Shown here piece after piece: positions 3,442 through 32,854 of a stretch of 64,000 bases of DNA (the stretch's first letter is position 1; every line of letters begins with the position of its first letter). The notes beneath the pieces were generated by a model. The model worked only from the letters and a program-made list of their open reading frames with translations. It had not been told where the DNA came from and made no database searches. The position numbers and the translations under genes were made by a program. This DNA is from Vampirovibrio sp. (GTDB lineage Bacteria > Cyanobacteriota > Vampirovibrionia > Vampirovibrionales > Vampirovibrionaceae): NCBI GenBank assembly GCA_027448865.1, contig DAIDMR010000069.1, positions 23,931 to 87,930 of the forward strand, given 5' to 3'.

Positions 3442-3481
3442 ACATCGAAAACACGGAACCATAGAAAATCAGGAAAACCCT

Positions 3482-7566: not shown

Positions 7567-7644
7567 GGGTTGCTTGTCCTCTCGACTCCGGTTAAAGGGT
7601 TTGGTAGAGCTTGGTAGAGATTAATGGAGAAGTTTCCTGAAGTG

Positions 7645-10600
7645 TCAGGGGGTGCCGTAGTAACTGCGCTGATCCTGTTCCAGCATAGCCAGTTGAGTCC
7701 CGCTCATGGCGTTGGGATACAGAATGACCTCGCTGACCCCCCCGGCCCAGAGGTCACCGAGGAAGAGAAAGGGCGCCACCCCCAGCCAGAGCCGGTTGAT
7801 GCCGAAGGCACCGCTGCTGGCCACAGAGGTGCCATAGACTCCATTGACGCGAATTTCATGGAAACTGCCGTTAAAAACGGACGTGGCCTGAAAGGGCTGG
7901 TTCAGGGTAAAGGCCGGGGATATGCCCAGCGTGGCGTTATTCCGGTAACTAAACAACTGGTTGGTACTGCCGTAACGGCGCAGAAAGGAAGCCGATTCCG
8001 GCGTGGCGTAATCATAGACGTCCGAACTTTTGTTGCCACCAAACAGCCTGCCAGCAGTACCCGTAGAACCGTCCATGCTGGCCACCACCAGCGCTCTGGC
8101 ATTGGTGCCGGTAAAGTTGAGGGTGCCGGCAGTGTTCATGCAGTTGTTTAAACCGTTAAACTGAATGGCGGGGCGACCCGTTTTTCTATCCAGCCGAATC
8201 ACCGGCTGTAATTCCCGAACGCCTTGCCTGAAATTGAAGCCATTGCCGCTTTGGTCGTACCATGTGGTCACAAAACCGGTGTCCGGAACCTTGTCGTTGA
8301 TGTTGTAATAGGCCATTTGATTGCCTTCCAGACGATTTCGTGTGGCGGTGGTAACGCTGGTGTTATAAATAATCAGTTCTGACATGGCCGCACTGGCACC
8401 GGGATAAAAACCAATCTCGTTATGCCCCAGAACAGCCACTCCCTGTGGGGTAATATCCGTATCGGTGTCCGGTGTGGAAGCATCCACAAGGCCATTGACA
8501 AACAAGCTATAGTCGATCCCCCGGTTTCGTTGAAAGGAAACCAGTTGACCCGTACCATCACTGGGAATGGTATAAGAACCTGTCCGCACAGTTTGATTGG
8601 TTCCATCATTCCGGCGTGTCACAAGCGCAAATTTCCCGGAAGACTTTATTAAACCCACAATTGGATTGCTATTGCCAGCGGGATTACGATCCAGGAAGTT
8701 CGCAGTATCAACACTGCCATAGTCGGCCAGTATAGTGGAATACCACCACCCACCGGTTCCCGCCATGAGATTTGTACCCGACCCCAGCAAAATCCGACTG
8801 CCTATGTTACGCATGGCAGGTCGCCCATTAATGGTATCCAAAACCCCGGCATTCGTAATGCGAGGCTGATTGGCTGCGGTGGGCTGGGTCAGGTGCCGGT
8901 TATTCCCGCTTTGGTCATACCAGATGGAGACAAAACAACTGCTGATGCCGCAAAACTTGAACAAGTTTGCGAGATCCAGATTTCCTTTGGAATCAAAACC
9001 AATAATCTGGGTGCTGTTATCACTGCTGCGACGCACCTGAATAGCTTTATCATCATCAGTTGTCCCGGTATTGTCCGTAATTAATCTGCGTAAGCCGTAA
9101 GCGGCGGTGGCACTGGGTACGGTTACCAGCGGCGGGGTATAGCCCGGGTCCTCCAGAGTGAGCTGGTAATAGCGAGCATCGTCGTTCTCCAGAATTTGCC
9201 GTTCGGCGGTGGTTAAATCAGTCGGGTATTGAATCCATTCCCCCACAGCCCCTTTAAAATAGCCGTAGGGCGCATGGACAGTCGGCGGGCCGCCGATGAA
9301 TACGGGGGTAAATAAATCCCCTCGTAACGATGTAAATCCCACGTCGACCAGTTTACTATTGACAAAGAGAAAAGGCTGCTTGTTGATGTAGTTGTACGAT
9401 ACTATAAGACCATCGTTGTTATTGGGGCTGATGCTGGCGTTGGCAAGGCATGGCATGTAAGAGTTCCCATGCTCATAGACACCCACCCCATTTTCCCCCA
9501 GCGAGATCCCCGAACCGGCGTTGACTGCTCCCCCTTGGGGGGGACTGAGCAGATACTTTTGACCACCAGTCCCCGACGAACCGCTGGTTGCTTTGGACTG
9601 CAAGGTAATGCTTGCCCCGGCGTCCACCTGAGCGACCACAAGATTGAAGGAACTGTTGGCTAAATTGTTGGTGGCTCCAGCAATGGCGTCATCCACACCA
9701 TCAAATCGAAGGGCCACCCGGCCATTGATCATCTCCAGGGCCCCGGCATTCACAATACGGGGTTGCGCGGTCAGTGTGGACTGGGTGGCATTTCGGCCAT
9801 TGCCGCTCTGGTCATACCAGGTGGTTACAAAACAACTATCCGTCTTGCAAAAGCTGAGCAAGGAGGGCGTGTCCAAATCCCCATTGGGCAAAAAGCCGAT
9901 GTTGGTGGTCGTGTCATCGCTACTGCGCCTGACGATAATGGCGTTGCCCGTGTAGGCGGTGTTGATTTTCCTTAAACTATAAGCCCGAAATGCGCCAGTC
10001 ACCCGATCCAGCGGTTTGGGGTAGGTGGTCAGGTTATCATTCAGGAAAGTCATCAAGGCGGGCATGTCCAAATCGCCATTGGGTAAAAACCCGATATCTG
10101 TTTCGGCGTTGTCACTGCCGCGCCGCACCCGAATGGCCCGGGTAATGGCGGCGTCGCTGGTCAGTCGGCGCATGCCATAAGCGGCGGTGGCCCCTGCAAT
10201 GTTGTTGAATGCCATTGGGTAAATGTCGCGCGTCAGGGTCAATAACTGGCTGACGCTGGACTGGCTGCTCCCCACCGTGGCCGTTACCACAACCAGCACG
10301 GTGTTACCATTCACATAACTGACCCGGCTGGTGTAAGAGCCAACCGAGCGGGTAGCCCCAGCCAGACTGTCGGGGCTCTGGGGCATGAGGACATAGGCCG
10401 GATCATTAGTGGAGTTGAAAGAAGCGCCCGCGGCAATGGTTTGCCCGGTATTGTATGAGGTCTGAAGCCGAGCGGTCACCGCCCTCATCCCGCTTTTGGC
10501 CAGTTCCTCTGCCGCCAGGCGGTTCTGGCTGGCGCTGCCCATAACAATGGCTGACAAAGGGCCGCTCATTAATTGCAAAGAGGCGCCAATGGCCATGGTG

Positions 10601-10725
10601 GTTCCTAAAAACGCCAACAACATGGCCAGCCCGTATCCCTTTTTCTTCCCGGGAGAACGACCGGCGGCCTTGAGCCACTGCGCGAACTGAAATCCTGCTT
10701 TACCAGCTTTACCTGTTTTAAACAT
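7645..10725 (-). CDS. PilX_N-domain protein fused to tandem LamG/concanavalin-like lectin repeats (putative type IV pilus tip adhesin), 1026 aa
   Basis: The N-terminus KKKGYGLAMLLAFLGTTMAIGASL resembles the PilX N-terminal domain. About three copies follow of a ~90-aa module (AYGxRRL...VRRSSD...IGFLPNGDLD...) each ending in the WYDQSGNG(R/N) motif characteristic of LamG_3-like jelly-roll domains. There is also one more solo WYDQSGNG module. Confidence 0.55.
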   Translation of the reverse strand: MFKTGKAGKAGFQFAQWLKAAGRSPGKKKGYGLAMLLAFLGTTMAIGASLQLMSGPLSAIVMGSASQNRLAAEELAKSGMRAVTARLQTSYNTGQTIAAGASFNSTNDPAYVLMPQSPDSLAGATRSVGSYTSRVSYVNGNTVLVVVTATVGSSQSSVSQLLTLTRDIYPMAFNNIAGATAAYGMRRLTSDAAITRAIRVRRGSDNAETDIGFLPNGDLDMPALMTFLNDNLTTYPKPLDRVTGAFRAYSLRKINTAYTGNAIIVRRSSDDTTTNIGFLPNGDLDTPSLLSFCKTDSCFVTTWYDQSGNGRNATQSTLTAQPRIVNAGALEMINGRVALRFDGVDDAIAGATNNLANSSFNLVVAQVDAGASITLQSKATSGSSGTGGQKYLLSPPQGGAVNAGSGISLGENGVGVYEHGNSYMPCLANASISPNNNDGLIVSYNYINKQPFLFVNSKLVDVGFTSLRGDLFTPVFIGGPPTVHAPYGYFKGAVGEWIQYPTDLTTAERQILENDDARYYQLTLEDPGYTPPLVTVPSATAAYGLRRLITDNTGTTDDDKAIQVRRSSDNSTQIIGFDSKGNLDLANLFKFCGISSCFVSIWYDQSGNNRHLTQPTAANQPRITNAGVLDTINGRPAMRNIGSRILLGSGTNLMAGTGGWWYSTILADYGSVDTANFLDRNPAGNSNPIVGLIKSSGKFALVTRRNDGTNQTVRTGSYTIPSDGTGQLVSFQRNRGIDYSLFVNGLVDASTPDTDTDITPQGVAVLGHNEIGFYPGASAAMSELIIYNTSVTTATRNRLEGNQMAYYNINDKVPDTGFVTTWYDQSGNGFNFRQGVRELQPVIRLDRKTGRPAIQFNGLNNCMNTAGTLNFTGTNARALVVASMDGSTGTAGRLFGGNKSSDVYDYATPESASFLRRYGSTNQLFSYRNNATLGISPAFTLNQPFQATSVFNGSFHEIRVNGVYGTSVASSGAFGINRLWLGVAPFLFLGDLWAGGVSEVILYPNAMSGTQLAMLEQDQRSYYGTP

Positions 10726-10879
10726 GGGCCAACACCAATCGGCTTTTCAAGTTACTTACGGTTACACGATTCAACATTCAATCAACGCGTTTTGCCTATA
10801 GCGGATATAACTATTTTAAACACTCTTTCTGGATCATCGTTCTGTTTGCCAAAAACTTTAACCCGATTTTCACAATTTC

Positions 10880-11749
10880 CTAAAATCGGACTTTATCCGC
10901 AGACTCTGCCCTCAGAGCGGTAATTTCAGCCCCCACAAAGAAAATCAGCGCTGAATAATAGAGCCAGGTCACCAGGATAATCAGTGCGCCCAGGGCTCCG
11001 TAAACCGGGTTAAACTGGTGCATGTGGTTGACGTACAGACTGAACAGCTCTGAAACGCTGACCCAGGCGATCAGAAAAAAAATGGCGCCGGGTAAGCTGA
11101 CCCGCCAGCGTAATCTTCCTGTTTTCGGGCGCAAAATCAGGGCGTATGTCAAAGTGGTGATTGCGGTAATGCCGCAGCCCAACACCAGCCAGCGGCTGAT
11201 ACGTAACAGGGCCACCACGCTGAAAAGCAAGTGAAAGCGCCCATGCAGCCATGAAATCAGAGCATCGCCAAACAGAATGAGATAAATCGCCACGACCAGC
11301 ATCACGCCCATAAATAATACCAGCACAATGGATACAATCGGCGTGTACCAGAAGGGAAAGTCTTTTTCCGGAATCCCGTAGGCACGTCTCAACCCCTTAA
11401 CAATAACACCGCCACTCCCGGAAGCCGACCACAGCGTCATCAGCATGCCCGCCAGCGTCAGTCCGGTTGTGCTACCCCCAATGGTAGCATCAAGGAGATT
11501 AATCAACAGACTGCCGGTGTGCGCCGGGGCCAGTTCATGGATGAAATCCACGCACAGCGCGTAAAAAACACTGGTTTGCCCCAACAGGCCGAACAGGGCT
11601 ATCAGGAAAAACGTGGCGGGGATGAGGGATTGAATCATGTTAAAGGCCACCTCGGCGGCAAGCCCCTGGCAATCATCCGCATTGATTTTCTGAAATAAGC
11701 CCCTGAGCCACGCCGGAAACCGACGTTTCCGTCCTTCCCCTTCAGTCAT
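10880..11749 (-). CDS. YihY/BrkB (virulence factor BrkB / ribonuclease BN-like) family inner membrane protein, 289 aa
   Basis: It is a six-TM hydrophobic protein of typical YihY size with conserved hydrophobic blocks. Its start overlaps the mgtA 3' end by 8 bp, so the two form an operon. Confidence 0.7.
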   Translation of the reverse strand: MTEGEGRKRRFPAWLRGLFQKINADDCQGLAAEVAFNMIQSLIPATFFLIALFGLLGQTSVFYALCVDFIHELAPAHTGSLLINLLDATIGGSTTGLTLAGMLMTLWSASGSGGVIVKGLRRAYGIPEKDFPFWYTPIVSIVLVLFMGVMLVVAIYLILFGDALISWLHGRFHLLFSVVALLRISRWLVLGCGITAITTLTYALILRPKTGRLRWRVSLPGAIFFLIAWVSVSELFSLYVNHMHQFNPVYGALGALIILVTWLYYSALIFFVGAEITALRAESADKVRF

Positions 11750-14405
11750 AGCCGAACTTCCCGATGAACCAGCGCTTGACCATCTGGATCAGGATGAAGT
11801 AGGCGGCCAGAATACCCATCAGCCATGCAAAATAATGGCCCGGCAGCGTTACGAACCCGAAAAACGGGGCCAGCGGAGAATGTGGCAGATAAATGCCGAT
11901 ACCGATGATGAGCCCAGTCATTACCAGCAGCTGCGGGGCGGCCCAGCTTTGCAGGAATGGAATTCTGGCGGTGCGGATGAAATGTACGATCAGCACTTGC
12001 GACAACAATCCCTCAATAAACCAACCGGTATGGAACAGGGCCTGCCGGTCTACCGTATTGGCCTGAAAAACAAACCACATCACGGCAAACAGGATGTAAT
12101 CAAAAATAGAACTCACCGGGCCGAAGGTCAGCATGAATCGCTCCACGTTGGGAACCTCCCAGCGATGGGGCTTGGCCAGAAACGCTTCATCCACCCGATC
12201 AAAGGGGATGGCTGTTTGCGAGATGTCGTACAACAGGTTCTGGGCCAGGATCTGGATGGGCATCATGGGTAAAAACGGCAACAGAAAGCTGGCACCCATC
12301 ATGCTGAAGACATTGCCGAAATTGGAGCTGGTGGTCATGCGAATGTATTTGATGATGTTGCCAAATACCTTGCGCCCTTCAATCACCCCGTCATTCAGAA
12401 CCAACAGGCTTTGCTCCAGCAGAATCATATCGGCTGATTCCCTGGCGATGTCCACCGCGTTGGCCACGGAAATACCCACATCTGCCCGGTGCAACGCGGG
12501 GGAGTCGTTAATACCGTCTCCCAGAAAGCCCACCACATGGTTTTTTCGTTGAATTGCCTGAATCACCTGTTCTTTGTGTTCCGGGGTCAGCTTGGCAAAA
12601 ATGGTGGTTTGTTCCGCTTTCTCCGCCAGTTGCTCAGGACTCAGCGATTCGATGTCCCGCCCCAGCAGAATGCCTCGAATGGGCAAACCTACCACGGTGC
12701 AGATTTTGCGGGTGACCAGCTCATTGTCACCGGTCAGGATTTTAAGCGCCACGCCCAGCTGGCTTAATTCCTGAATGGCCTGCGCGGTGCTTTCCTTGGG
12801 TGGATCCAGAAAGGCAATGTACCCCAGCAGGGTCAAATCCCGCTCATCTTCAACCGTGTAGGTATTTTGTCGCCCATCCATGTCCTTGCAGGCCACGGCA
12901 ATCGTCCGAAACCCTTCTTCACTCAGTTTTTGCGTATCCTTGTGAATCTGCTCCCGAATGGCCGGGGTGATAGGATATTCCCGCCCCTTATCGTGAATGC
13001 GGGCGCACACGCTCAGCATTTCCTCAATAGCCCCCTTGCAGATCAGCGTGTGTATGGCTTCCCTGGCAATGACCACAGAAAGACGACGGCGTTCAAAGTC
13101 AAAGGGAATCTCATCCACCTTGGCGTAATCGCTTTCAATGTTCAGTGCGTCATCTTGCTCGGCATGGGCCATGATGGCCTCATCCAAAAGATTTTTCAGG
13201 CCTGATTCAAAATAACTGTTGAGGTAGGCCGCTTTGAGAACCTCGATACTTTCTTCGCCATGCAGATTCAGGTGTCGGTAGAGAATGACCTTGTTCTGGG
13301 TCAGGGTACCGGTCTTGTCGGTGCATAGCACGTCAATGGCGCCCAGATTCTGGATGGCGGCCAAACGCTTGACGATCACTTTCTTCTTCGACAGAGCGAT
13401 GGCTCCTCGGGACAGGTTGGTGATGATGATCATGGGAAGCATCTCGGGGGTCAGTCCCACGCCAACGGCCAGGGCAAAGAGTAACGCGGTTAGCCAGTCG
13501 TGCTTGGTCAGGCCGTTGACCAGAAAAATCACCAGAACCATCGCTGTAATAAAGCGAATCAACAGCCAGCTCAGCTTGTTAATCCCCTGATCAAAGCTTG
13601 TGGGCGGCTCATCTTCCACGATTTTTGCGGCCAGATTGCCAAAGTAGGTCTGATCCCCGGTTGCCAGCGCCACGGCCACAGCCATTCCGCTGACCACACT
13701 GGTGCCCATAAAGCAGAGGTTGTCCAGATCAATCAGGTTGCCGCTGGTGTCGTCATCCGGTTCCGCTTTCTTCTCCACCGGAAAGGATTCCCCGCTCAGA
13801 GCGGACTGGTTGATGTGCAAGTCCCGAACTTCAATCAACCGGACATCGGCAGGGATGAGATCCCCCGGGCCCAGGGTCATGATATCGCCCGGAACCAGAT
13901 TTTTCAGGGGGATTTCCTGCAGGTGGCCCTGCAGATCCTGTTCAGTCTGACGCCTGCGGACACTGACCCGGCTGGTGACAAGCGCTTGAAGTTCTTCCGC
14001 CGCTCGACTGGAGCGGGATTCCTGAATAAAGCGCAAGAGCACGCTCAGCAATACCATGATGGCAATCATAATGGCGGACGATCGATTACCGCTGACGTAA
14101 GAGAGAAACCCAAGAACCATCAGCAGGTAATTAAAGGGGCTATTGAACAGTATCATCAAGCGGATCAACCCGGGACGGCGTTTCTTTCGAGTGATCTCAT
14201 TCAGTCCGTACTCAGAAAGACGCGCTTCGGCCTCGGTTTCCGTTAGGCCTGAGGAAGTGCTTTGCAGGTTCTCCAGTACCGCCGCAACCGGTCTGCGGGC
14301 TAAAGCCCGAAAATATTCCAGGCGATGCTCCGGATTGTTTGTTGCGGTCGGCTTTTCGGATTTCAGGCCGGGCATTGGAAGCGGTCTCCTTCGGTCAGCA
14401 TTCAA
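11742..14405 (-). CDS. mgtA: Magnesium-importing P-type ATPase MgtA (type IIIB), 887 aa
   Basis: It carries the P-type motifs CTDKTGTLTQNK (phosphorylation site), TGDN, and GDGINDSPAL. Length and the C-terminal TM organisation match MgtA/MgtB. Confidence 0.9.
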   Translation of the reverse strand: MNADRRRPLPMPGLKSEKPTATNNPEHRLEYFRALARRPVAAVLENLQSTSSGLTETEAEARLSEYGLNEITRKKRRPGLIRLMILFNSPFNYLLMVLGFLSYVSGNRSSAIMIAIMVLLSVLLRFIQESRSSRAAEELQALVTSRVSVRRRQTEQDLQGHLQEIPLKNLVPGDIMTLGPGDLIPADVRLIEVRDLHINQSALSGESFPVEKKAEPDDDTSGNLIDLDNLCFMGTSVVSGMAVAVALATGDQTYFGNLAAKIVEDEPPTSFDQGINKLSWLLIRFITAMVLVIFLVNGLTKHDWLTALLFALAVGVGLTPEMLPMIIITNLSRGAIALSKKKVIVKRLAAIQNLGAIDVLCTDKTGTLTQNKVILYRHLNLHGEESIEVLKAAYLNSYFESGLKNLLDEAIMAHAEQDDALNIESDYAKVDEIPFDFERRRLSVVIAREAIHTLICKGAIEEMLSVCARIHDKGREYPITPAIREQIHKDTQKLSEEGFRTIAVACKDMDGRQNTYTVEDERDLTLLGYIAFLDPPKESTAQAIQELSQLGVALKILTGDNELVTRKICTVVGLPIRGILLGRDIESLSPEQLAEKAEQTTIFAKLTPEHKEQVIQAIQRKNHVVGFLGDGINDSPALHRADVGISVANAVDIARESADMILLEQSLLVLNDGVIEGRKVFGNIIKYIRMTTSSNFGNVFSMMGASFLLPFLPMMPIQILAQNLLYDISQTAIPFDRVDEAFLAKPHRWEVPNVERFMLTFGPVSSIFDYILFAVMWFVFQANTVDRQALFHTGWFIEGLLSQVLIVHFIRTARIPFLQSWAAPQLLVMTGLIIGIGIYLPHSPLAPFFGFVTLPGHYFAWLMGILAAYFILIQMVKRWFIGKFGYD

Positions 14406-14762
14406 TCAGAATACGCTGAATCGATACCATTTGCATCGGATTACGGGGCAAGGTGAGTATTGTCCTTGAGCCAGACACCTCGCTTATGGACTAGTGCCTC
14501 AGGCCCATTCCTTTAGTGCCTGTGGCATTGCACACAAGGTGGCAGGATGGGTTTCATTCAGGCATTGGTTGCGCTGGCATGGCGTTGGTGCTGTTACCAG
14601 GAGAATCAGCCGGGATCCAGGTTTGGATCCTGATACCCAGTGATAAAACAGTCGTTTTGTAAAATATCTGTCGTTGCGCCTCGGGTGGCCAGTCTCCCGT
14701 TATAAAAAAGATCAAATTCAATCACATTTCTATCCGCTCCACCCAGGGATAACCCATCCGGA

Positions 14763-14861
14763 TCAACGGGAACCCAGGACTTTGCCGTTCGGTCGGTTGA
14801 TCTTCAGTGCCTGGAAAGTGCTTTTGAGTATGCGAACTTAAAGCGGGCATTGAAAATTTAA
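14763..14861 (+). pseudogene. Decayed 3' fragment of a hipA-like toxin gene (last ~30 codons) plus a conserved downstream tail
   Basis: Translation gives ...DFAVRSVDLQCLESAFEYANLKRALKI*, against the intact HipA C-terminus ...KFGLRSAEIKRMESAFEHEDLKRALKI* at 30662. The ~65 bp after the stop (to about 14928) also match the sequence after the hipA stop at 30664-30729 at about 85% nt identity. Confidence 0.55.
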
Positions 14862-14947
14862 AAGGCGTTCATTGATTCTCCCGCCATTTTCTCAGTATCT
14901 TTAGCTCGATATTCGGGGAGCAGGCCAACGATGAAATGCAGTCAAAC

Positions 14948-15823
14948 TCAGGCCCGATCTTTCATTTCCTGTTTCAAAAGGGCTAAAAATGCTGCCAGGG
15001 CAGGATTTTTATCGTCTTTTTTCCAGGCGGCGAACACAGACCAGCGGGCCTCCCTGTCCGTTTGTGGATAAAGATTAATGTCGGCAGTGTCCGGACAAAA
15101 GGACGGTGGGAGTATGGAGACGCCCAAGCCCGCTTTCACCAGCGCAAGCACACTCGTCACTTCCGCCACCTCCTGAACAATTCGAGGGTAAAATCCATAG
15201 TTGGCACAGAGTCCTAAAATCTGGTTATGCAGCACGGGGGAGCGCTCTTTCGAGATAATGACAAAGGGAATCTCCGAGCAATCTTCCAGGTGGGTTAATC
15301 TGTTGAAATCGGGATGATGCGGAGTAATCAGTGTTAGCTGTTCACGAACCAGGGGAAGCGTCTCGAATTCAGTTTTGGTCGACAATTTAACAAACCCGAT
15401 ATCCAGCTGCCCGTTTCGCAGGGCTTCAAGCTGCTCATGGGTGGATAGATCCTTGAGTACCAATTCAATGCCGGGTCGATCCTGTCTGAATTTAACAATG
15501 AGAAGCGGGATCATTTCCAGGGCATAATGGCTAAAACCGATGCGCAGCAGCCCTTGTTCGCCGCTGGAGATTTTTTGACCCAGGATACAGAGGTTCTCGT
15601 ACTGGGCCATAAAACCTTGCGCTTCTTTCAAAAACTGTCGTCCAAATGCGGTGAGCTGAGTGGATTTTCGATCCCGTTCAAACAGGGTATTTCCCAAAAA
15701 CGATTCCAGTTTATTGATTTGCTTGCTCAAAGCGGGTTGGGTGATATTCAACAGTTTTGCGGTGCGTCCAAAATGTAAATATTCCGCCAGTAGTACAAAA
15801 GCTTTTATTTCATGAATTTCCAT
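14948..15823 (-). CDS. LysR-type transcriptional regulator (AaeR-like, divergent from the efflux operon), 291 aa
   Basis: It has the N-terminal wHTH LHFGRTAKLLNITQPALSKQINKLE and a C-terminal substrate-binding domain. It is divergently oriented to the OMF-aaeXAB-like operon, as E. coli aaeR is to aaeXAB. Confidence 0.9.
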   Translation of the reverse strand: MEIHEIKAFVLLAEYLHFGRTAKLLNITQPALSKQINKLESFLGNTLFERDRKSTQLTAFGRQFLKEAQGFMAQYENLCILGQKISSGEQGLLRIGFSHYALEMIPLLIVKFRQDRPGIELVLKDLSTHEQLEALRNGQLDIGFVKLSTKTEFETLPLVREQLTLITPHHPDFNRLTHLEDCSEIPFVIISKERSPVLHNQILGLCANYGFYPRIVQEVAEVTSVLALVKAGLGVSILPPSFCPDTADINLYPQTDREARWSVFAAWKKDDKNPALAAFLALLKQEMKDRA

Positions 15824-15980
15824 TTTCTATCTCGCTAGCGATGATCAAGATCGGATTGTAAAGTCTTTTTATGATAACTAAAGGTTATCACAGGCATAAA
15901 CAAAAGTAATTGGCGCAATCAGAAAGGTTTATAGACAATAAGCCTTATCCCCCCTCGCTCTCTGAACGAATGAGTATTCA

Positions 15981-17438
15981 ATGTCACGCCTTACCCCGTT
16001 ACATCGCTTTTGCCTGATTGTTTCCTGTTTCATTTTTGTGTGGCCGTTACCCGTTTATGCCCAGCAAGCCCCGAAGACGCCAGGAAAACCCTGGGATATT
16101 GAGGCCTCGATTCTGTACCAGTCTCAAGAGACTCACAAAAATGAGTGGGCAGACGCGTTATCAACCGATAAGCGCTATACGCTGCCTGAATTGATTAGTT
16201 TGGCAGAAGAACGCAACCCCAAAACACGGCTAGCCTGGGAAAAAGCCAAACAGTTGGCCGCAAAGCTGGGGATTGCCCAAAGTGAGTTGTTTCCAACCCT
16301 GGCGGCTGTGGCCATACTGGAAAATAACAGCTCGGCCCTATTTTTTGAGACCTTCTATACCCAGAACCTGTTTTTATTCAGGCCAGCCATTTCCTTAAGC
16401 TATACGGTTCTAGACTTTGGGGAACGGCGTGGCAAAATTGACGAACAAAAGGCCAGCCTGCTGGCGGCCAATCTGAATTTTAATGATGTCCATCGTCAAG
16501 TGATTTACAGCATGGTGAGCGCCTACTATAAGGTTATGTTGGCTATGAGTCGAAAGGAAGCCGCTGAGGTAACCCTGGCAAACGCCAGAACCGTGCAGGA
16601 TTCTGTGGAAGAACGACTGGAGCAGGGCTTGGCCACCCTACCCGATAAGCTGGACGCACAGGCGGCCTCCGCCAAAGCCGAGTATGAACTGGTCGCCATC
16701 CAGGGCGAGGAGGATATTGCCCGGGGTGAACTGGCCTCTCTATTGCGAGAATCTCCCCAGAAAAAGCTGTCCCTGGAAAGCTTAAACCAAACCACAGGCT
16801 TTAACTTTCTAACGCCAGACGCAACAGCGACCATCGAGGAAGCATTACGGTTCCGTCCGGATTTCCTGGCCAAAATTCAACGTATCAGCGCGGCCCAAGC
16901 AGACATAAAGAGCAAGCGCGCAGCATACTTTCCCAAGCTGACTATTTCGGCCAATTACGGTCGGTTGGCCGCGTATGCCAACCAGGAGCATAGTCCCTAC
17001 GCCTTTGGGCAGATTCCCGTTTATCAATGGCAGGCAAATTTTAACTGGGTTTTATTTGATGGCGGGCGTCGTCGTAATGAATTACGTCTGGCCAAAGCCC
17101 GATACGAAGCAGCGCTCTCAGAGCAGCAAGAAGCCAAAGATCAGATTGAGTTTCAGGTGTGGCAGGCCTACGTCAATCTGGAAACGGCAAAAAAGCAGTT
17201 GGCAGCCTCTGAAAGATTGCTATTGGCCTCTCAAAAATCCTATGAGGCGGCCACGGAGTCCTATCAGTACGGGCTGCGTAATGTCATTGATGTGACCAAC
17301 GCCCAAAAAAACCTGGCCATTGCCCGAAATACCTTTGTGGAAGCGCGTATCAACATACTGGTGGCGATGGCCGAGCTGGCTTTTCAAACCGGCGATCTGG
17401 TTCATATTGGGAATCCTCCGCTTGTTAATCCGCCATGA
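15981..17438 (+). CDS. Outer membrane efflux protein (TolC/OMF family), 485 aa
   Basis: It has a signal peptide and OMF-type repeat architecture, and is the first gene of a four-gene efflux operon. Its stop overlaps the next ORF by 4 bp. Confidence 0.8.
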   Translation: MSRLTPLHRFCLIVSCFIFVWPLPVYAQQAPKTPGKPWDIEASILYQSQETHKNEWADALSTDKRYTLPELISLAEERNPKTRLAWEKAKQLAAKLGIAQSELFPTLAAVAILENNSSALFFETFYTQNLFLFRPAISLSYTVLDFGERRGKIDEQKASLLAANLNFNDVHRQVIYSMVSAYYKVMLAMSRKEAAEVTLANARTVQDSVEERLEQGLATLPDKLDAQAASAKAEYELVAIQGEEDIARGELASLLRESPQKKLSLESLNQTTGFNFLTPDATATIEEALRFRPDFLAKIQRISAAQADIKSKRAAYFPKLTISANYGRLAAYANQEHSPYAFGQIPVYQWQANFNWVLFDGGRRRNELRLAKARYEAALSEQQEAKDQIEFQVWQAYVNLETAKKQLAASERLLLASQKSYEAATESYQYGLRNVIDVTNAQKNLAIARNTFVEARINILVAMAELAFQTGDLVHIGNPPLVNPP

Positions 17439-17776
17439 TGTCCCTGGTACCAATAGAATCACCCTACCCTTTCATACTACTTGGAGTACCGTTCATGAAG
17501 TCATTGTTTGAACCGAGGTCTCTGTCCGCAGTTTTGCTGTTGGTCGGCATTTGTCTTGCGATGTCGGGGTGTCAAAGAAGTCCTTCTATTGATATTTTCG
17601 GTTCTTTTTTCCCGGTATGGTTTTTTTGCATGCTGGGCGGACTGCTGATCACATTTGTGATTCGGTATTTCCTCAGACGTCTGCGGCTGGATCAGGAGAT
17701 GGGCCCCCTGGTCATTATTTACCCCTGTATGACCGCGTTGTTCTCTTTTATCCTTTGGCTGGTTTTTTTCCCTTGA
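17435..17776 (+). CDS. DUF1656/AaeX-like small membrane protein (true start probably internal, about 17495 or later)
   Basis: The C-terminal part IDIFGSFFPVWFFCMLGGLLITFVIRYFLRRLRL resembles AaeX (FPVIVVFG...LVRRVL), and it sits immediately upstream of the HlyD-like adaptor as in aaeXAB. A possible lipobox LAMSGC exists. The annotated start is the longest ORF, not necessarily the real one. Confidence 0.5.
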   Translation: MMSLVPIESPYPFILLGVPFMKSLFEPRSLSAVLLLVGICLAMSGCQRSPSIDIFGSFFPVWFFCMLGGLLITFVIRYFLRRLRLDQEMGPLVIIYPCMTALFSFILWLVFFP

Positions 17777-17797
17777 TTTGAAGAATATAGGTGCGTC

Positions 17798-18997
17798 ATG
17801 GTTTTCAGTTTCAATAAAAAAAGAGTCGGTCGGCTTTTAGGTGGCCTGATCATTGGTTCAACGCTGCTTACCGGCGCTGCGGTGTATTGGCGAATCATCA
17901 CCCACCCCCGTACGGATGACGCAGAGGTGTTCGCCAACCTGATCGGCATTGCCCCGGAAGTCAGCGGCCCCATTACCCATATTTACGTGAAAGACAATCA
18001 ATGGGTCAAAAAAGGCACCCTGCTTTTTGAAATCGATCGCGCGCCGTTCCTGTATGCCTGGCAAGCCGCCAAATCTCAACGTGATACGCTGGAAGGCGAA
18101 ATTCGGGACTTAAAGCGGAAAATCATTTCACAGCAAAACTCGGTTCGATCCGCGGATGCTCAAATCAGGGTCTCAGAGGCATCACTGGAAAACAGTGGGG
18201 CTGGCATCAGCGCCGCCATTGCCGGGGTTGAAAACGCCAGGGCGGGTTTGGTTCGCGCCGAAGCCGATTATGTGTATGTCACCGCTAACCTGAAACGGCT
18301 GGAGGCCTTGCTCAAAAAGCAATTTGTCACTGTGGATCAGGTTCAATTGGCTCAGACCGATGTTCGAAATAAAGCAGAAGCGGTTTTACAGGCCCGATCG
18401 CAACTGGCATTTCAACAGGCTCAACTGAGTGCCGCCCGGGCCAGACAGCGAGAAACCAATGCTCAATTAATCCAGAGTCAAGCCCGTCTGGATGAATCCG
18501 TTTACAAAATTGACATTTTGGATCCGCTGGTGGCGCAGAGGCAAAAGAAAATCGCCGAAATTGATACAGCAGCCTATAATTTGTCCCGTTGTCGTATTTA
18601 TGCCCCTTTTGACGCCAGAGTCACCAATTTGATGGTGTCGGAGGGAGAGTATGCGCATGCCGGGCAAAAGGTATTCACACTGATCGACACCCGGAAATGG
18701 TGGGTCATCGCCAATTTCAGAGAATCTCAAGTCAATTACACCCGTCCTGGCACCAAAGCCGATGTGTACCTGATGTCTGAGCCAAGCGTGCGCTATGAAG
18801 GCGTTGTGGAGAGTGTTGGCTATGGTGTACTGCCAGATAGTAATCTGATTGGTAACCTGGATGGCGACTTGCCTGATGTTCGTCGGACGCTCAACTGGGT
18901 TCGTTTGGCCAGTCGCTTTCCGGTCAGGGTTCGCGTTCTGAATCCGGAAAGTGAGCATTTTCGAATTGGGGCTTCCGCCATGGTGGTTATACAGTGA
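17798..18997 (+). CDS. HlyD-family membrane fusion/periplasmic adaptor protein (AaeA-like), 399 aa
   Basis: It has a single N-terminal TM, a long coiled-coil (QQAQLSAARARQRETNAQLIQSQARL), and a C-terminal beta-barrel region typical of HlyD/EmrA/AaeA. Confidence 0.85.
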   Translation: MVFSFNKKRVGRLLGGLIIGSTLLTGAAVYWRIITHPRTDDAEVFANLIGIAPEVSGPITHIYVKDNQWVKKGTLLFEIDRAPFLYAWQAAKSQRDTLEGEIRDLKRKIISQQNSVRSADAQIRVSEASLENSGAGISAAIAGVENARAGLVRAEADYVYVTANLKRLEALLKKQFVTVDQVQLAQTDVRNKAEAVLQARSQLAFQQAQLSAARARQRETNAQLIQSQARLDESVYKIDILDPLVAQRQKKIAEIDTAAYNLSRCRIYAPFDARVTNLMVSEGEYAHAGQKVFTLIDTRKWWVIANFRESQVNYTRPGTKADVYLMSEPSVRYEGVVESVGYGVLPDSNLIGNLDGDLPDVRRTLNWVRLASRFPVRVRVLNPESEHFRIGASAMVVIQ

Positions 18998-19036
18998 GAA
19001 ACAATGAGTGCTAACAGCCTTAACTAATTACAGGAT

Positions 19037-21190
19037 TTGATCATGACCGTGACGAAGCCTTTACAAGTCTGTAATATTCCGGCCAATCAGCCCTGGCTGT
19101 TTGACTTTTTAAAAGATGAGCTGAAACCGTATCCCAACCGTTTTCACACCGTGGCTCGCATGGTGCTTTCCGCCACTCTGACCATGCTGGTGATCATGAC
19201 TTTGCGCAGTCCAAATGGGGCCATTGGCATTTTTTTCGGGTTATTAATTTCCAGAGAGAATCCTGCCAATACTCTGAAAAGCGGTTTGCAGACCATCCTG
19301 GCTTTTATTGCCGGGCTTGTGTATACCCTGCTGGGGGTGACTCTGTCTTTGAACGAACCGCTGCCTCACTTTGTTTTTATCGCGCTGAGTTTGGCGCTGA
19401 TGTTTTTTATCATCCGCACTGTTAAAAGTTTTAGCGCTGCTTTTGGCTTCTGCTTTATTGTGGTGACAACCCTCCCCGTTTGGGAGCCGCCTTTTTCGGT
19501 TAATGCCCAGGTGGATAGCACGCTTTGGTCGGTCTTTGGCGTTATATTGGCCGTGTGCGTCGCAATGACCGTTGAGCTTATCTTTTGCCCCCGGCAGAAT
19601 ACGACAGAGGAGATTCGGAAAGGGGTTAACTATCGCCTAGATGCCATGCAAGCCCTGTTTCAGGCTTATGTGAATGAACAGGTTACTACCGACAGTCCCA
19701 AATTGGAGCGGATTAAGCAGATGGCAAGACTGGGAGCCCGCCAGTTAAAATGGTTTTTGGCCCGTTCCAGCATCGAGGATTCTTTGGGCCTGCGTAAAGC
19801 CCGATGGGGAAGTTATATTTCCGCTGTAGAGCGCTTGGTGGATACGGCTTCAAACCTGGGTATCCCCAGAAAACCCTTAACGGAGGTGGATAAAAGTCGC
19901 CTGCTTGCTTTGCAGAATGCCTGTCGATCCCTGCGACTCGCCAATATCAGCGAAAACATACCCGTACAAAAGATCGGGTCTTTTTCGGAAAATCTTTCAC
20001 GGGCATTGCCGCTGTTGTCGGATCTAGAGCGCCAGTTTGAGCGTCTGCCCCAGTTGTTGAATGAGACCAGCCTTGATGAAAAAAAGACAGAGCCCACACA
20101 ATGGTCTTGGCGACAATTATTTCTAGCAGATGCCTTTGTGAGCGTGGAGTATCTGCATTTCGCGGTGAAGGGCACGCTGGCCGGATTGGCCTGTTATGTG
20201 TTCTATTCCGCTGTCGATTGGCCCGGACTCGGTAACAGCTTGGCGACCTGTGTGATTACAGCACTTTCTACCGTAGGCTCCTCACGACAAAAACAGATTT
20301 TGAGAATGGGTGGGGCCATTTTGGGCGGCTTAATTCTGGGGATCGGTTCCCAAATTTATATTTTGCCTCACCTGGATTCCATTTTAGGATTCACTCTGTT
20401 TTTTGGGATCATAACCGCCCTATCCGCCTGGGTGACCACGGCCAGTCCCCGATTGTCATACTTCGGACTGCAAATGGCCCTTGCCTTTTACCTTATTATG
20501 TTTCAAAGCACCGCAATTCCAACCGATCTCACCATAGGACGCGATCGGGTCATTGGGACCCTACTGGGTCTGGTTGCCATGTGGGGCATTTTCGATCAAT
20601 TGTGGGCCAAACCAGCCATTCAGGAAATGAAAGAGGCCTTTGCCGCCAACATGAAGCACTTGGGGACTTTGAGCCTGGCCATGCTGTCTGTTTCACCCTC
20701 GGTGGAAGCCATGGATATCCTGCGGGAACGTATTAATAACGGTTTTAACAAGATGGATGGAAACGCGGATATGATTCTTTTTGAGTTTGGCAGGGCTCGT
20801 GCTGAGCATTTATATTGGCGATCGCGACTTGAAAATTGGCAAAATACCCAGGAGTCCTTACTTTTGGCCCAATTGGCTGTTAACCACTATCGCTCTCACA
20901 TGCAAATCTCAGATTGGCCCGAGAGTCTGCAAGCCGCACTTTTACAGTTTAATCAGGCTTTGGCAAAAACCTGGTATGAAGTGGGCCTGCGAGTGACCAC
21001 GACCCCTGACTTAGCCCTCAACAACCATGTCCTGGAACCACTGCTTGTAAAACTGAGACAGGAAGTATTCCTTCATTTCGCCTCACGCCCTGATGAGATG
21101 GGCTTCCATAATGCCGAGGCCATACTGGATTTGGATGAGCAGATCGTGCTGATGACGGAAACCCTGATCAAGGAAGTCTCTGCCGCTTGA
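19037..21190 (+). CDS. FUSC (fusaric acid resistance / aromatic acid exporter) family protein, AaeB-like, 717 aa
   Basis: It is duplicated, with two hydrophobic modules each followed by a hydrophilic domain. It sits directly downstream of the HlyD-like gene, reproducing the aaeX-aaeA-aaeB order. Confidence 0.85.
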   Translation: MIMTVTKPLQVCNIPANQPWLFDFLKDELKPYPNRFHTVARMVLSATLTMLVIMTLRSPNGAIGIFFGLLISRENPANTLKSGLQTILAFIAGLVYTLLGVTLSLNEPLPHFVFIALSLALMFFIIRTVKSFSAAFGFCFIVVTTLPVWEPPFSVNAQVDSTLWSVFGVILAVCVAMTVELIFCPRQNTTEEIRKGVNYRLDAMQALFQAYVNEQVTTDSPKLERIKQMARLGARQLKWFLARSSIEDSLGLRKARWGSYISAVERLVDTASNLGIPRKPLTEVDKSRLLALQNACRSLRLANISENIPVQKIGSFSENLSRALPLLSDLERQFERLPQLLNETSLDEKKTEPTQWSWRQLFLADAFVSVEYLHFAVKGTLAGLACYVFYSAVDWPGLGNSLATCVITALSTVGSSRQKQILRMGGAILGGLILGIGSQIYILPHLDSILGFTLFFGIITALSAWVTTASPRLSYFGLQMALAFYLIMFQSTAIPTDLTIGRDRVIGTLLGLVAMWGIFDQLWAKPAIQEMKEAFAANMKHLGTLSLAMLSVSPSVEAMDILRERINNGFNKMDGNADMILFEFGRARAEHLYWRSRLENWQNTQESLLLAQLAVNHYRSHMQISDWPESLQAALLQFNQALAKTWYEVGLRVTTTPDLALNNHVLEPLLVKLRQEVFLHFASRPDEMGFHNAEAILDLDEQIVLMTETLIKEVSAA

Positions 21191-21332
21191 GGCAGTATAC
21201 CCGCTGGCTTCGTTTTTTTGTTCGCCAATCTTGTGCTGAACCGCTTTTTTGTATGCCGATTCAGAACTGCTTAGTCCGAAAGCTAAAGAGCCCCATCTCT
21301 TGGAACAGAAGGGGCCCCTAGCGAAGATCTTT

Positions 21333-21896
21333 TTAACTGATAACCAATTCCCAGGGCTTGGCATTGTTGCTTTTAAAGCCATCGGCCTGATACCCGGCGG
21401 CGGTCAGTTCTGTTTCGTATTGTTCAGGGTGTGCGGCCGCATCAATCATGACCTCAGAGATAATTTGCAGCGCTTCTTCCCAGTTGGCTTTCATCTCATC
21501 AGTCCATTCACCTTCTTTGGACAAATGCTCATCCAATACAGCCACTAGATTCTCTGCCACAGCGCCATAATGGCCGTTTTCCGTTTTATAGGCGATATGC
21601 CGTATGCCCATGGCTCGCAGGTAAGGCAACATAACCTCAGGGTTGGTAACAGATGCCACAATGGCGCCCACGGAAGCCATCAACTTCTTGTGTTGCTCCT
21701 CAGGCGGAGCGGTAAAGAGGTGTCGCACACTGGGATATTTCTCAAATAAACGCTCGTAAAAACGTAATCCTAATGTTCGCAACCCACCATTTTCTTTTTT
21801 GGCGCGATCAAACGATTCTGCAATCAGGGCCACATTCAATGTCATAGGGCGATTCCTTTTCAATTTAGGGGATACGTTTACTCTAGTCCATCCCAC
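21333..21896 (-). CDS. Single-domain bacterial globin (Vitreoscilla-Hb / flavohemoglobin N-domain-like) with a C-terminal extension, 187 aa
   Basis: The globin A-B-C helix pattern ...FDRAKKENGGLRTLGLRFYERLFEKYPSVRHLF... matches the Vgb/Hmp N-domain pattern (FYxxLFxxxPxxxxLF). The proximal region MGIRHIAYKTENGHY has a candidate proximal His. Confidence 0.65.
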   Translation of the reverse strand: MGWTRVNVSPKLKRNRPMTLNVALIAESFDRAKKENGGLRTLGLRFYERLFEKYPSVRHLFTAPPEEQHKKLMASVGAIVASVTNPEVMLPYLRAMGIRHIAYKTENGHYGAVAENLVAVLDEHLSKEGEWTDEMKANWEEALQIISEVMIDAAAHPEQYETELTAAGYQADGFKSNNAKPWELVIS

Positions 21897-21913
21897 CCCT
21901 GAGCCTCATTGAC

Positions 21914-22615: not shown

Positions 22616-22622
22616 GCTCTCA

Positions 22623-22961
22623 TTATAGCGACTTAAACTTGAAAACTACAAACACGCAGTCAGTTTCGGCTTCAGCGCCATGAGGTGTGCCCGCTTGCAT
22701 TTCCAGCATTGAGCCTGGATGCATGACATAGGCGTCATCGTTGGCTGTAAACCGGGCTTTGCCACGCAGCCATAAAACCAGAACCTGATCATCGGTCTTG
22801 TGACATTTGAGAGCAGTTCCGGCTTTCAGGGATACGCGTTTGATCTGGGTGTGCCCCACAGCAGCCAAAGGAGTAATGAGAGGTTTATCGACTTCAAAAT
22901 CACAGTGTTCCAGTATATTTTTGTAGTGAACTTCTGAATTAAAAGCAATTGACATATTCAA
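22623..22961 (-). CDS. Cupin-domain protein, 112 aa
   Basis: It is a small beta-rich protein with the cupin-like motif HKTDDQVLVLWLRGKA...HPG...G.PHG. It lies 7 bp downstream of the Crp-family gene. Confidence 0.55.
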   Translation of the reverse strand: MNMSIAFNSEVHYKNILEHCDFEVDKPLITPLAAVGHTQIKRVSLKAGTALKCHKTDDQVLVLWLRGKARFTANDDAYVMHPGSMLEMQAGTPHGAEAETDCVFVVFKFKSL

Positions 22962-24203: not shown

Positions 24204-24317
24204 TTCCGCCTCACACCAAGACAATTCTCAAACGACCCTTTTAAGTGACAAACAGCAGGCATTGAAAAAAGAGGAGTGAAACAAACGCTTATTTTTGAAG
24301 CCAGGTTTTTATCCTGA

Positions 24318-28450: not shown

Positions 28451-28830
28451 TGAGCTGTAAACACTAATCTAAAACCGTTAAAGCTCATTTGTTGCTATCT
28501 TCCTGCAAAGATTACGCCATTTCAGCGACTGTTTTATTGAACCCTGTCACAAAAGTTTGGCGGACTTGAACGGGCTTGATCGCTTAAGTGTCATCAGAAC
28601 GACTGGCGGGCCAAAAACTAGAAAAGCCCCAGTTGGACGTTCATCCTTCTGAGACTTGGGTTTTGTGAAGAAAAGGTTGGTACCCCCAGGGGAATTCGAA
28701 AAGGAGAAATATGGTTTACCGCCCATTACCGGTACCTCCTTAAACCTAACCGTAGAGATGCTTTTGCCCCTATGCTCAAAAAATAAGTGTTTTTATTTTC
28801 TACTGAGATATACCCCCTTTTCCCAACACA

Positions 28831-28893
28831 ATTACTGCAAAATTACTACCAAATTACTGCCAATTACCTCTACATACTGTTGCATATATGTAG
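28831..28893. repeat. Four tandem ~10-11-bp direct repeats (AATTACTGC / AATTACTACC / AATTACTGCC / AATTACCTC) followed by the 7-bp inverted repeat CTACATA-n10-TATGTAG
   Basis: Read directly from the sequence. It is located about 200 bp upstream of hipB. Confidence 0.6.
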
Positions 28894-29086
28894 CGCTGAG
28901 TAAGGATTTTGTTGTTACGGATCGATTCCCCTTGTAACGAAACCTTCACAAATGTCAGTAGAGTTTTTTGAAACTGGACCAGGCAAGCAACTCCTACGGT
29001 AATTGAAGTTATAGAGACTACACATCTTGAATAATGGAAACTACGTGTTACACTAAACACAGATAACGGAATATAAAGGTTCCATT

Positions 29087-29425
29087 ATGCCAACTCCGCA
29101 TCGCCCTCCCTTGACCGTTCGCCGAGCACTCAAGCAGCTTGGGGAGGATATCCGCGATGCACGCCGTCGCAGCGGACTACCCGCTGAGGTGGTTGCTGAA
29201 CGGGCTTTTACTAGCCGTCCTACTCTGAGACGAATTGAGGCAGGAGATTACAGTGTAAGCATAGGTATCTATGCATCGGTTCTGCAAGCTTTGGGACTGC
29301 TGGAGGGGCTTGGCGAGTTGGCAAGTCCGTCCAAGGACAAGTTAGGAATGGCGCTGGCTTCTGAGAAATTGCCTCAGCGGGTGCGTATGCGCCGAACTCA
29401 ACGAAATAAGAACGATGAGCAATAA
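29087..29425 (+). CDS. hipB: HipB-like XRE-family HTH antitoxin, 112 aa
   Basis: It has the XRE HTH RRALKQLGEDIRDARRRSGLPAEVVAERAFTSRPTLRRIEAGD. It overlaps the hipA start by 11 bp. Confidence 0.8.
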   Translation: MPTPHRPPLTVRRALKQLGEDIRDARRRSGLPAEVVAERAFTSRPTLRRIEAGDYSVSIGIYASVLQALGLLEGLGELASPSKDKLGMALASEKLPQRVRMRRTQRNKNDEQ

Positions 29426-30662
29426 CATCGAAGTCCATATCGATTTTGCCTGGGGACAAAAACGGGTGGGAACGCTTTATCGTCATCCCCGTAGTGGTGG
29501 AGAAGCCCTCAGCTTCGAGTACCATCAAGATTGGCTGAACGATAAAGCTGCCCGGTTTTCGTTAGAGCCAGCACTCAGGCTAACACCGGGAGCTTTTGCT
29601 CCTACGGGTGGGATGTCCATGTTTGGTTCCATTGGGGATTCGGCTCCGGACACATGGGGCAGACGACTGATGCAGCGAGCCGAAAGACGACTTGCAGAAC
29701 AGGAAGGGCGGGCTATCCGGACCCTGATGGAAGCCGATTACCTGCTGGGTGTCTCAGATATCTCCCGAAGTGGAGCCTTGCGGTTCCGGCAGCTTGGAGA
29801 ACCTGAATTTCAATCACCTAAAGGCGTACCGCAAATGATAGCTTTGGGAGAATTGCTAGGCATTACCGAGCGAATCCTGCGCGATGAGGATACGGCAGAA
29901 GATCTCCAGCTTATCTTTGCGCCGGGATCTTCGCTGGGGGGAGCTCGCCCTAAGGCATCAGTACAAGATGTTCAGGGTCAGCTTGTGGTCGCCAAGTTTC
30001 CGAAGGAAACCGATGATTATAGCCTGGAGACCTGGGAAGTCATCTCCTTGGAGTTGGCCAAACAAGCAGGGTTAAATATACCTCAAACCAGATTGGAAAC
30101 TGTGGCCGGGAAACCGATATTGCTGTCTTATCGCTTTGATCGCTCTGGAAATACAAGAATTCCATTTCTGTCTGCTCTGTCTTTAATGGGCCTGAAAGAT
30201 GGAGAGCGCGGGAGTTATCTAGAAATAGTGGATGTACTTACTCAATATGGGGCGCAATGCAAAACCGATGCTCAGGAGTTGTACCGGCGGATGGTTTTCA
30301 ATGTACTAATTTCCAACGTGGATGATCATCTTCGTAATCATGGGTTTCTTTGGCAAGGACAAGATGGATGGGTACTCTCGCCGGTCTATGACTTGAATCC
30401 AACGCCTGTTGACGTCAGGCCCCGAATTCTGACTACTAATATCAGTCTGGATGAGGCGACTTGCGATATCGAGCTGGCTTTATCAGTTGCCGAATATTTC
30501 AACTTGTCACAGGGCACTGCAAAAACCATTATTCGGGAAGTCGCGGTAGTAACCTCAACTTGGTCTTTAGTGGCCGGGAAATTCGGCCTTCGTTCTGCCG
30601 AAATCAAGCGCATGGAAAGTGCGTTTGAGCATGAGGACCTGAAGAGGGCACTGAAAATTTAA
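29415..30662 (+). CDS. hipA: HipA-family serine/threonine kinase toxin (type II TA), 415 aa
   Basis: It has a HipA N-terminal coupling domain and the catalytic motif NVDDHLRNHGFL (HipA DxHxKN-type). It is of typical length and is preceded by an overlapping hipB-like gene. Confidence 0.9.
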   Translation: MSNNIEVHIDFAWGQKRVGTLYRHPRSGGEALSFEYHQDWLNDKAARFSLEPALRLTPGAFAPTGGMSMFGSIGDSAPDTWGRRLMQRAERRLAEQEGRAIRTLMEADYLLGVSDISRSGALRFRQLGEPEFQSPKGVPQMIALGELLGITERILRDEDTAEDLQLIFAPGSSLGGARPKASVQDVQGQLVVAKFPKETDDYSLETWEVISLELAKQAGLNIPQTRLETVAGKPILLSYRFDRSGNTRIPFLSALSLMGLKDGERGSYLEIVDVLTQYGAQCKTDAQELYRRMVFNVLISNVDDHLRNHGFLWQGQDGWVLSPVYDLNPTPVDVRPRILTTNISLDEATCDIELALSVAEYFNLSQGTAKTIIREVAVVTSTWSLVAGKFGLRSAEIKRMESAFEHEDLKRALKI

Positions 30663-30771
30663 AAGTCGTTCATTGATTCTCCCGCGATTTTCTCATTATC
30701 TTTGGTAGGATTTCCGGGAGGCAGACCAAAATCTTTACTCTCTATCCCTCGTCGATAATAGCGTCAGTCTT

Positions 30772-32819: not shown

Positions 32820-32854
32820 GAAGAGTTGATTCTCCTCAACAGTTACCTAATGAC

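Follow-up and report, generated by a model that had tools for sequence, protein, structure and literature searches.

A short segment of the window (the whole stretch of 64,000 nucleotides of Vampirovibrio sp. DNA analysed here), at ~14766-14928, is likely the inert right-end relic of a second, diverged portable hipBA module, as judged by its alignment to the intact hipBA further along the same stretch. We refer to this segment as copy A and to the corresponding end of the intact locus as copy B. When positions 14400-15000 were compared with the whole window by blastn, the sole non-self match joined 14806-14928 to 30607-30729 (82.1% identity over 123 nt, E 1.9e-30). The similarity includes the stop codon and the tail that follows it, and an E value of 2e-30 excludes chance similarity. 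The 19-mer CGTTCATTGATTCTCCCGC occurs exactly twice in the window, where shuffled sequences would be expected to yield 0 occurrences. At the protein level, tblastn with the intact HipA (29415-30662) as query matched 14781-14858 (26 aa, 58% identity, E 7e-5), and 123 HipA homologues searched against 14300-14960 matched only through their last 23-31 residues (HipA residues ~385-415), the earliest match starting at 14766. The nearest to copy A among these 123 homologues was the window's own HipA. These results bear out the original prediction that the fragment is homologous to the HipA C-terminus, and its proposed start at 14763 was about right, the protein similarity beginning at ~14766-14781. 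The features at copy A are as follows.

14766..14861, plus strand: hipA 3' pseudogene fragment, last ~27-32 codons, ending in DFAVRSVDLQCLESAFEYANLKRALKI before the stop codon (tblastn, ORF list, codon table)
14862..14928, plus strand: tail copy A, the 67-nt 3' flank of the lost hipA copy (alignment to copy B)
14869..14893, plus strand: tail core in copy A, 25 nt, TCATTGATTCTCCCGCCATTTTCTC (1 mismatch to copy B)
14948..15823, minus strand: lysR, opening the 13.7-kb stretch that separates relic A from the intact module (Pfam)

No other part of a hipBA locus was found at this site. In 14300-14960, tblastn with the 123 homologues found no hipA remnant beyond the C-terminal piece, nor was a hipB remnant found (best HipB tblastn E 0.69). 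None of the start codons ATG, GTG and TTG opens the frame that ends at 14861, and no listed ORF has its end there. The HipA_C kinase core in an ORF with a start codon that marks a HipA toxin is thus missing from copy A, as is the upstream HTH antitoxin gene of a hipBA operon; the intact locus has such an antitoxin gene, and its hipA (29415-30662) carries the HipA_C domain. A former second hipBA that decayed, of which the last ~27-32 codons and the 3' flank survive without a start, is the best supported of the readings put forward at the outset. The gene context described then was also confirmed: the copies bracket lysR, OMF/YtcA/HlyD/FUSC efflux genes, a globin/Crp/cupin group, an ankyrin protein, a 725-aa protein, hipB and hipA, and each copy occupies a gap between convergent genes, copy A adjoining the lysR stop (14948) and copy B the histidine-kinase stop (30772). 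Tail copy A terminates in CCAA, 19 nt short of the lysR stop codon.

Judged by its boundaries in related genomes, the intact hipBA was shown to be a discrete module of ~2.05 kb (28678-30729, 2,052 bp), made up of a 273-nt non-coding left part, an operator/promoter stretch, hipB, hipA and the 67-nt tail.

28678..28950, plus strand: left non-coding part of the hipBA module (left boundary common to L002, L093 and L094)
29087..29425, plus strand: hipB, XRE-type HTH antitoxin (Pfam HTH_31 and HTH_3)
29415..30662, plus strand: intact hipA, 415 aa (Pfam HipA_C 4e-46, Couple_hipA; homologues)
30663..30729, plus strand: tail copy B, 3' flank of the intact hipA and right end of the module (synteny starts at 30732-30735 in L007, L008 and L091)
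30670..30694, plus strand: 25-nt tail core, TCATTGATTCTCCCGCGATTTTCTC (same in copy B, L002 and L092)
30735..30737, minus strand: ancestral TAA stop of the histidine-kinase gene, junction with the conserved chromosome (alignment to relatives)

On the left, similarity is limited to window position 28678 in L002, L093 and L094 (equivalent to their positions 3783, 1247 and 873, respectively) and to 28695 in L092, and the genes to the left of this boundary differ in each of the four. On the right, tail B ends at 30729, ~5 nt or less from the break in synteny with L007, L008 and L091. These three have no hipBA and are 89-92% identical to the window over the kinase, response regulator and RND block; beyond the junction, they carry AsnC, ParB and phage-like genes in place of hipBA. 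The earlier idea of a modular junction at the hipA 3' end therefore stood, since the left boundary is recurrent and the tail B end lies ~5 nt from the synteny breakpoint. Note that the histidine kinase has 458 aa in the window and 468 aa in L007 and L008: a premature TAA occurs at 30772-30774, where those relatives have CAA, and the former coding end, as far as the ancestral stop at 30735-30737, is now non-coding DNA.

Several observations were made on the non-coding left part of the module. Its end (28678-28700, minus strand) reads TTCGAATTCCCCTGGGGGTACCA, 23 nt that resemble a tRNA 3' end and can be parsed as TTCGAAT-TCCCC-TGGGGGT-A-CCA (T-loop, T-stem, acceptor 3' strand, CCA). A terminator-like hairpin with a T-run lies beyond it (28620-28677). 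No complete tRNA was found at the module left end, and ARAGORN at a relaxed threshold gave none there. Judging from its sequence, this end seems to be an old att site, in the form of a displaced tRNA 3' end. Further inside, at 28830-28870, are ~3.5 tandem copies of an 11-nt unit (AATTACTGCAA / AATTACTACCA / AATTACTGCCA), whose periodicity is iteron-like or binding-site-like. In the ~60 nt upstream of hipB (29025-29090), an inverted repeat ATAATGGAAAC ... GGTTCCATTAT overlaps the start codon. The stretch upstream of hipB is 76-86% identical in hipBA loci of distant metagenomes and is likely an operator/promoter. This operator/promoter-like stretch reaches distant hipBA loci; the tail is restricted to one lineage.

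We then considered how relatives carry the module and the relic. The closest genome after the window's own is Vampirovibrio chlorellavorus NCIMB 11383 (LAPX01000019.1; L002, L010), ~90% identical over 28951-38728, whose genome contains conjugative type IV secretion genes, plasmids and 18 predicted islands (PMC4451040). There, hipBA, the tail and the histidine-kinase gene are preserved, at 92.8% identity over the junction; the DNA on the left side of hipBA is quite unlike that of the window and includes a Cu-ATPase gene, an ars operon, HEPN/MNT and MazEF. Copy A is present at the same lysR/P-type-ATPase junction, with 97% identity, in four Logan contigs (L003-L006), which match the window at ~98% identity. 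In L092, hipBA is 87-90% identical, with an integrase and another hipA upstream, and the tail extends only to ...GATTTTCTC (window 30697), with unrelated DNA beyond. In L001 (HipA 78% aa identity), an integrase stands beside hipB and similarity ends at the stop codon. The family is common on conjugative plasmids of Agrobacterium and Rhizobium, whose homologues are 64-66% identical at the nucleotide level in the coding part only, and HipA proteins of 65-80% identity were found across phyla. These plasmids, this spread and the integrases in L001 and L092 point to a mobile family.

Some of these loci have features of their own. In L002, a 5.5-kb insertion splits the hipBA module (3783-4085 and 9537-9575 correspond to window 28950-28990); it is flanked by ~28-nt direct repeats TTTTTTGAAaCTGaaCCAGGCAAGC and carries the ars operon, HEPN/MNT, MazEF and a partial second 273-nt element at 6568-6738. 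In L092, the hipA stop codon is the exact site of a 90-nt MITE-like insertion (5609-5698), which has terminal inverted repeats of 12-13 nt (GGTAACTATCCC) and a target duplication of 8 bp (AAAATTTA); the insertion turns the stop from TAA into TAG and parts hipA from the tail. The further hipA of this contig, 415 aa long and different from the first, lies between the integrase and hipB (2202-3600), with an HTH-like reading (…LGFTQARLAALAGISTPTISRFENKKEDIQL…) past its stop, seemingly running on in another frame; the sequence would fit a HipA-HTH fusion broken by a frameshift, or else a small antitoxin gene of its own. A marine hipA lineage (L064, L072, L073, L076, L083 and L057) has a 375-aa gene that overlaps the hipA stop through ATGA; in L064 this gene lies at 7239-8366 and is followed by an 889-aa gene at 8393-11062. 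The downstream DNA is conserved in this lineage because a third gene directly follows hipA there, and the lineage may represent a three- or four-gene hipBA variant.

The tail was compared with hipA synonymous sites as a neutral yardstick, with the reservation that site numbers are small (27 codons, 67 nt). The ~85% identity reported originally for the two tails agrees with our alignment, which gave 82% ungapped (55/67) and ~85% with two compensating gaps. In raw identity the tail is no better conserved than the coding end, the last 56 coding nt and the tail both being at 82% between A and B; a contrast appears only against synonymous sites. Specifically, pS between A and B was 0.57 and pN 0.21 over the 27 codons, and tail divergence was 12/67 = 0.18, which is indistinguishable from the nonsynonymous value (p 0.82) and below the synonymous one (p 0.002). 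Between B and L002, the tail has 2 substitutions and 1 indel in 67 nt against a pS of 0.22 (p 6e-5; hipA dS 0.26), and the 42 nt adjacent to the tail differ at 7 positions. Between B and L092, the proximal tail differs at 3/36 positions against a pS of 0.29 (p 0.002; hipA dS 0.37). In these three comparisons, tail divergence was 3-7x below that of hipA synonymous sites, which makes it probable that selection maintains the tail as a cis element of the intact cassette. The simplest reading of the values is that the tail of the intact module is constrained about as strongly as amino-acid-changing sites.

The conservation is uneven. Along 14778-14928 the identity of A and B runs 54%, 82%, 93% and 65%, and the tail itself falls from 93% over its first 41 nt to 65% over its last 26 nt (p 0.008). 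In five sequences, the 25-nt core shows a single difference, common to copy A of the window and of L003; copy B of the window, that of L002, and L092 are identical. As a calibration within the hipA family, 0 pairs at ~70-80% identity over the last 300 coding nt exceeded 80% over the first 60 downstream nt; the A/B identity over the same 60 nt is estimated at roughly 83%. For copy A itself, the window and L003 differ at ~3% of positions in region A, which is no lower than the ~2% seen around it, and the simplest reading is that fragment and tail have drifted neutrally since truncation. The argument from unexpected conservation past the stop of a pseudogene carries little weight for copy A, whose tail is as diverged as its nonsynonymous sites. 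As for the suggestion that the tail is functional, the constraint of 3-7x below synonymous divergence speaks for it, but the specific roles named with it, a terminator, a small RNA or a recombination hotspot, found no support.

The tail was always found together with hipA sequence. A strict 28-nt tail pattern had 0 matches in genome contigs. A core pattern of ~21-22 nt, searched in 185,579 species genomes, matched the NCIMB 11383 record once (its copy B); the single further match, in a Binataceae MAG, was ascribed to chance and has no hipA around it; the core pattern had 0 matches in JGI metagenomes and 0 in viral contigs. In 80 metagenomic hipA loci (65-72% aa identity), no nucleotide similarity was found past the stop, and in the 830 kb of sequence fetched, the 25-nt core occurred only directly after hipA or a hipA relic. 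In these searches, the tail was found neither outside the Vampirovibrio-like group nor without hipA sequence. On the question raised originally, whether the tail recurs at other hipA loci and at junctions in related genomes, the tail does follow hipA in relatives, but it is absent from other hipA loci (the 80 metagenomic ones and L001), and no occurrence at a junction independent of hipA was seen, every one being attached to hipA or its relic. An interspersed repeat, MITE or REP family was rejected, there being 2 copies in the window and the tail always being attached to hipA.

Candidate functions of the tail were examined one by one. A consensus scan for an intrinsic terminator (GC-rich stem-loop plus U-tract) found none in either tail on either strand, and a sigma-70 promoter consensus scan found no match in either tail. 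The proposed terminator was thus not supported, and neither was a structured small RNA: folding energies were no better than those of shuffles (z-scores of -0.03 and -1.5 on the plus strand, +0.9 and +1.0 on the minus strand), the RNAalifold consensus fold reached -4.7 kcal/mol with 0 compensatory pairs, and Rfam gave nothing at the gathering threshold and only two chance snoRNA matches at E<=10. An outer 5-bp stem, UCCCG/CGGGA, is retained in all four tail sequences. The CTCCCG ... CGGGAG pair noticed originally around a ~31-nt spacer was found in copy B with a spacer of 30 nt; copy A has CGGGGAG, not CGGGAG.

Five further candidates were set aside. ARAGORN at a relaxed threshold detected nothing tRNA-like in tail A or B. 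For an integron attC (RYYYAAC ... GTTRRRY), no GTTRRRY was present on either strand of either tail, the only GTT being in GTTCATT. A minus-strand C-terminal ORF (...RK[S/W]RENQ before the stop) lacked both a start codon and an ORF upstream in every copy. Pairing between the tail and hipBA mRNA was predicted at -34.7 kcal/mol, as compared with -30.0 +/- 2.4 for shuffles (6/200 as good), and was dropped because it is based on an 8-nt complement expected by chance. A HipB-operator-like half-site in the tail, matching 8/10 positions by eye, was estimated to be at about chance level and is absent in L092. What the tails have in common is a short site containing direct repeats (GATTCTC ... GATTTTCTC), always between convergent genes. 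Our best guess is a DNA or RNA cis element at the hipA 3' end, acting as a transcript-end/insulator or as a protein-binding site; a junction or recombination role appears less likely than either.

The reading that we prefer, a relic of a second module, can be set out as follows. Two copies of the module would formerly have lain in direct orientation, either through two independent insertions or through a Campbell-type single crossover of a circular DNA bearing a related module and the cargo from lysR to the 725-aa gene (lysR, efflux, globin and ankyrin genes). The latter route would yield direct repeats with the same right boundary and would make an integrase unnecessary; it requires homologous recombination between modules that today are only ~80% identical. 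The redundant left copy would then have been deleted down to its last ~150 nt, with the tail remaining under selection in the intact module, where it is conserved like nonsynonymous sites, and decaying in copy A. The 5.5-kb insertion with ~28-nt direct repeats in the same module of L002 provides a parallel case. The A lineage is old: synonymous sites are near saturation and A- and B-specific bases are fixed in the window and its relatives. No relative was found with an intact hipBA at the ATPase/lysR junction, so that the second locus is one that we infer. The uneven A/B identity profile could reflect old short-patch gene conversion.

A more far-reaching version, which we regard as possible but doubtful, is that the 25-41 nt after the hipA stop (TCATTGATTCTCCCGC[G/C]ATTTTCTC) form a selected, hitherto undescribed cis element of the cassette, either a docking/recombination end or a 3' control site, and that copy A is a footprint of the activity of this element, not random debris. 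A docking-end role, if true, would place the cassette immediately 3' of convergent genes. The tail constraint in the intact cassette is, on the alignments above, a small, real, unexplained signal; copy A as such is ordinary genome debris.

The tail might instead be an autonomous element, a bidirectional terminator/insulator or small RNA, of which copy A was exapted for lysR or the ATPase gene. In favour of this, each tail sits in a convergent gap, with 19 nt separating tail A from the lysR stop and 5 nt separating tail B from the ancestral kinase stop; the intact module shows constraint on the tail, whose first 41 nt are far more alike in A and B than its last 26; and the 5-bp stem is kept throughout. 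However, we think this unlikely: there is no terminator-like site in either orientation, the folds show neither better energies than shuffles nor covariation nor an Rfam family, the divergence of the A tail equals the nonsynonymous divergence of its pseudogene, and region A (~3% different from L003) is no better preserved than its surroundings (~2%).

Rather improbable in our judgement is that A and B are attL/attR-like repeats of a site-specifically integrated 15.8-kb island, from lysR to hipBA, with a core of 19-25 nt as the crossover. The repeats are in direct orientation and share an identical 19-nt block, synteny breaks ~5 nt or less from the tail B end, the similarity of L092 to the tail ceases right after the 25-nt core, integrases stand beside hipBA in L001 and L092, and the module left end is like the 3' end of a tRNA, which is a classic att sequence. 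But Pfam scans of the ORFs in 14929-30729 revealed no integrase, transposase or resolvase, leaving the proposed recombination site of an island without an integrase among the genes between the repeats; ORFs of 273 aa and 725 aa there had no Pfam match. The core has, on inspection, a direct-repeat symmetry, not a dyad, and the repeats are only 82% identical, running 123-150 nt into coding sequence with codon-like divergence. L002 shares the hipBA-tail-kinase junction, and there the DNA on the left is wholly different and copy A is absent. An empty site was not observed among the relatives examined: L003-L006 share the arrangement, and L002, L007, L008 and L091 differ on one side only, so the comparison gave no presence/absence polymorphism of the 14.9-30.7 kb segment among them.

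Ongoing or recent gene conversion that keeps a ~100-nt patch of A and B alike, with the hipA 3' end as a recombination hotspot, would account for the identity peak around the stop codon and the lower values on both sides. It is nevertheless very improbable. A-specific bases are common to the window and L003 and B-specific bases to the window and L002, which indicates that no A/B exchange has occurred since the lineages split. The longest identical A/B run is 19 nt, a length below the usual minimum for efficient RecA recombination, and the present-day hotspot considered originally was discounted on this ground.

Finally, a coding tail, as a HipA read-through extension or a small downstream ORF (K[S/A]FIDSPAIFS[L/V]SL...), is hardly credible: the post-stop frame is open and similar in A, B and L092 with several synonymous differences (pS 0.29 vs pN 0.14), but it has no start codon, a 1-nt insertion in L002 shifts it out of the hipA phase, all inspected HipA homologues end at the same position, 0 of 5.8 billion proteins share three 5-residue words with its translation, and it is unlike the third gene downstream of hipA in the marine lineage.

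With respect to known systems, the intact locus (29087-30662) is canonical among type II hipBA modules (PMC8262856): hipB overlaps hipA, HTH_31 and HipA_C domains are present, there is likewise a conserved operator/promoter-like stretch, and homologues occur on plasmids and beside integrases. Copy A differs in that it has only the last ~30 codons and cannot encode a kinase. Remnants of Campbell-type or tandem accretion are alike in having direct repeats around cargo with one copy intact and one truncated; here, however, no recombinase, empty site or second full copy was seen, and the repeats are old (82%). To the att sites of islands at tRNA 3' ends, the hipBA left end is similar in its 23-nt tRNA 3' end with CCA and the terminator-like hairpin, but the window has no intact tRNA partner and the tail has no tRNA-like features. 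We know of no conserved 3' non-coding tail described as part of hipBA modules. If the tail is a true 3' control or junction element of the HipA module, this well-studied toxin-antitoxin family would gain a new feature that lends itself to experiment. Relic A is of little importance in itself; it joins other signs of a patchwork of mobile modules (hipBA, AbiE, a truncated tRNA-Met, type IV secretion) and helps to date and order the mobile-module events in the region.

Minor observations were made elsewhere in the window. The Logan relatives (98% identical; L003 810-1613) have an extra ~800 nt with a Peptidase_M24 gene, between the 273-aa gene and the ankyrin-repeat gene, which the window (24203-24318) does not have. 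A tRNA-Met at 39516-39556 consists only of the 5' 41 nt, up to the anticodon loop; in L007 it is intact (2569-2643), with an inverted partial copy after it. Immediately beyond the truncated tRNA-Met, 39836-46019 carries an AbiEii/AbiEi toxin-antitoxin pair and type IV secretion genes (VirB11-like and VirB4-like), and this gene order suggests a conjugative element joined at tRNA-Met. The only match in the window at the Rfam gathering threshold is a traJ-II RNA motif at 63476-63573 on the minus strand (50.7 bits, E 1.5e-6), consistent with the context of a conjugative element.
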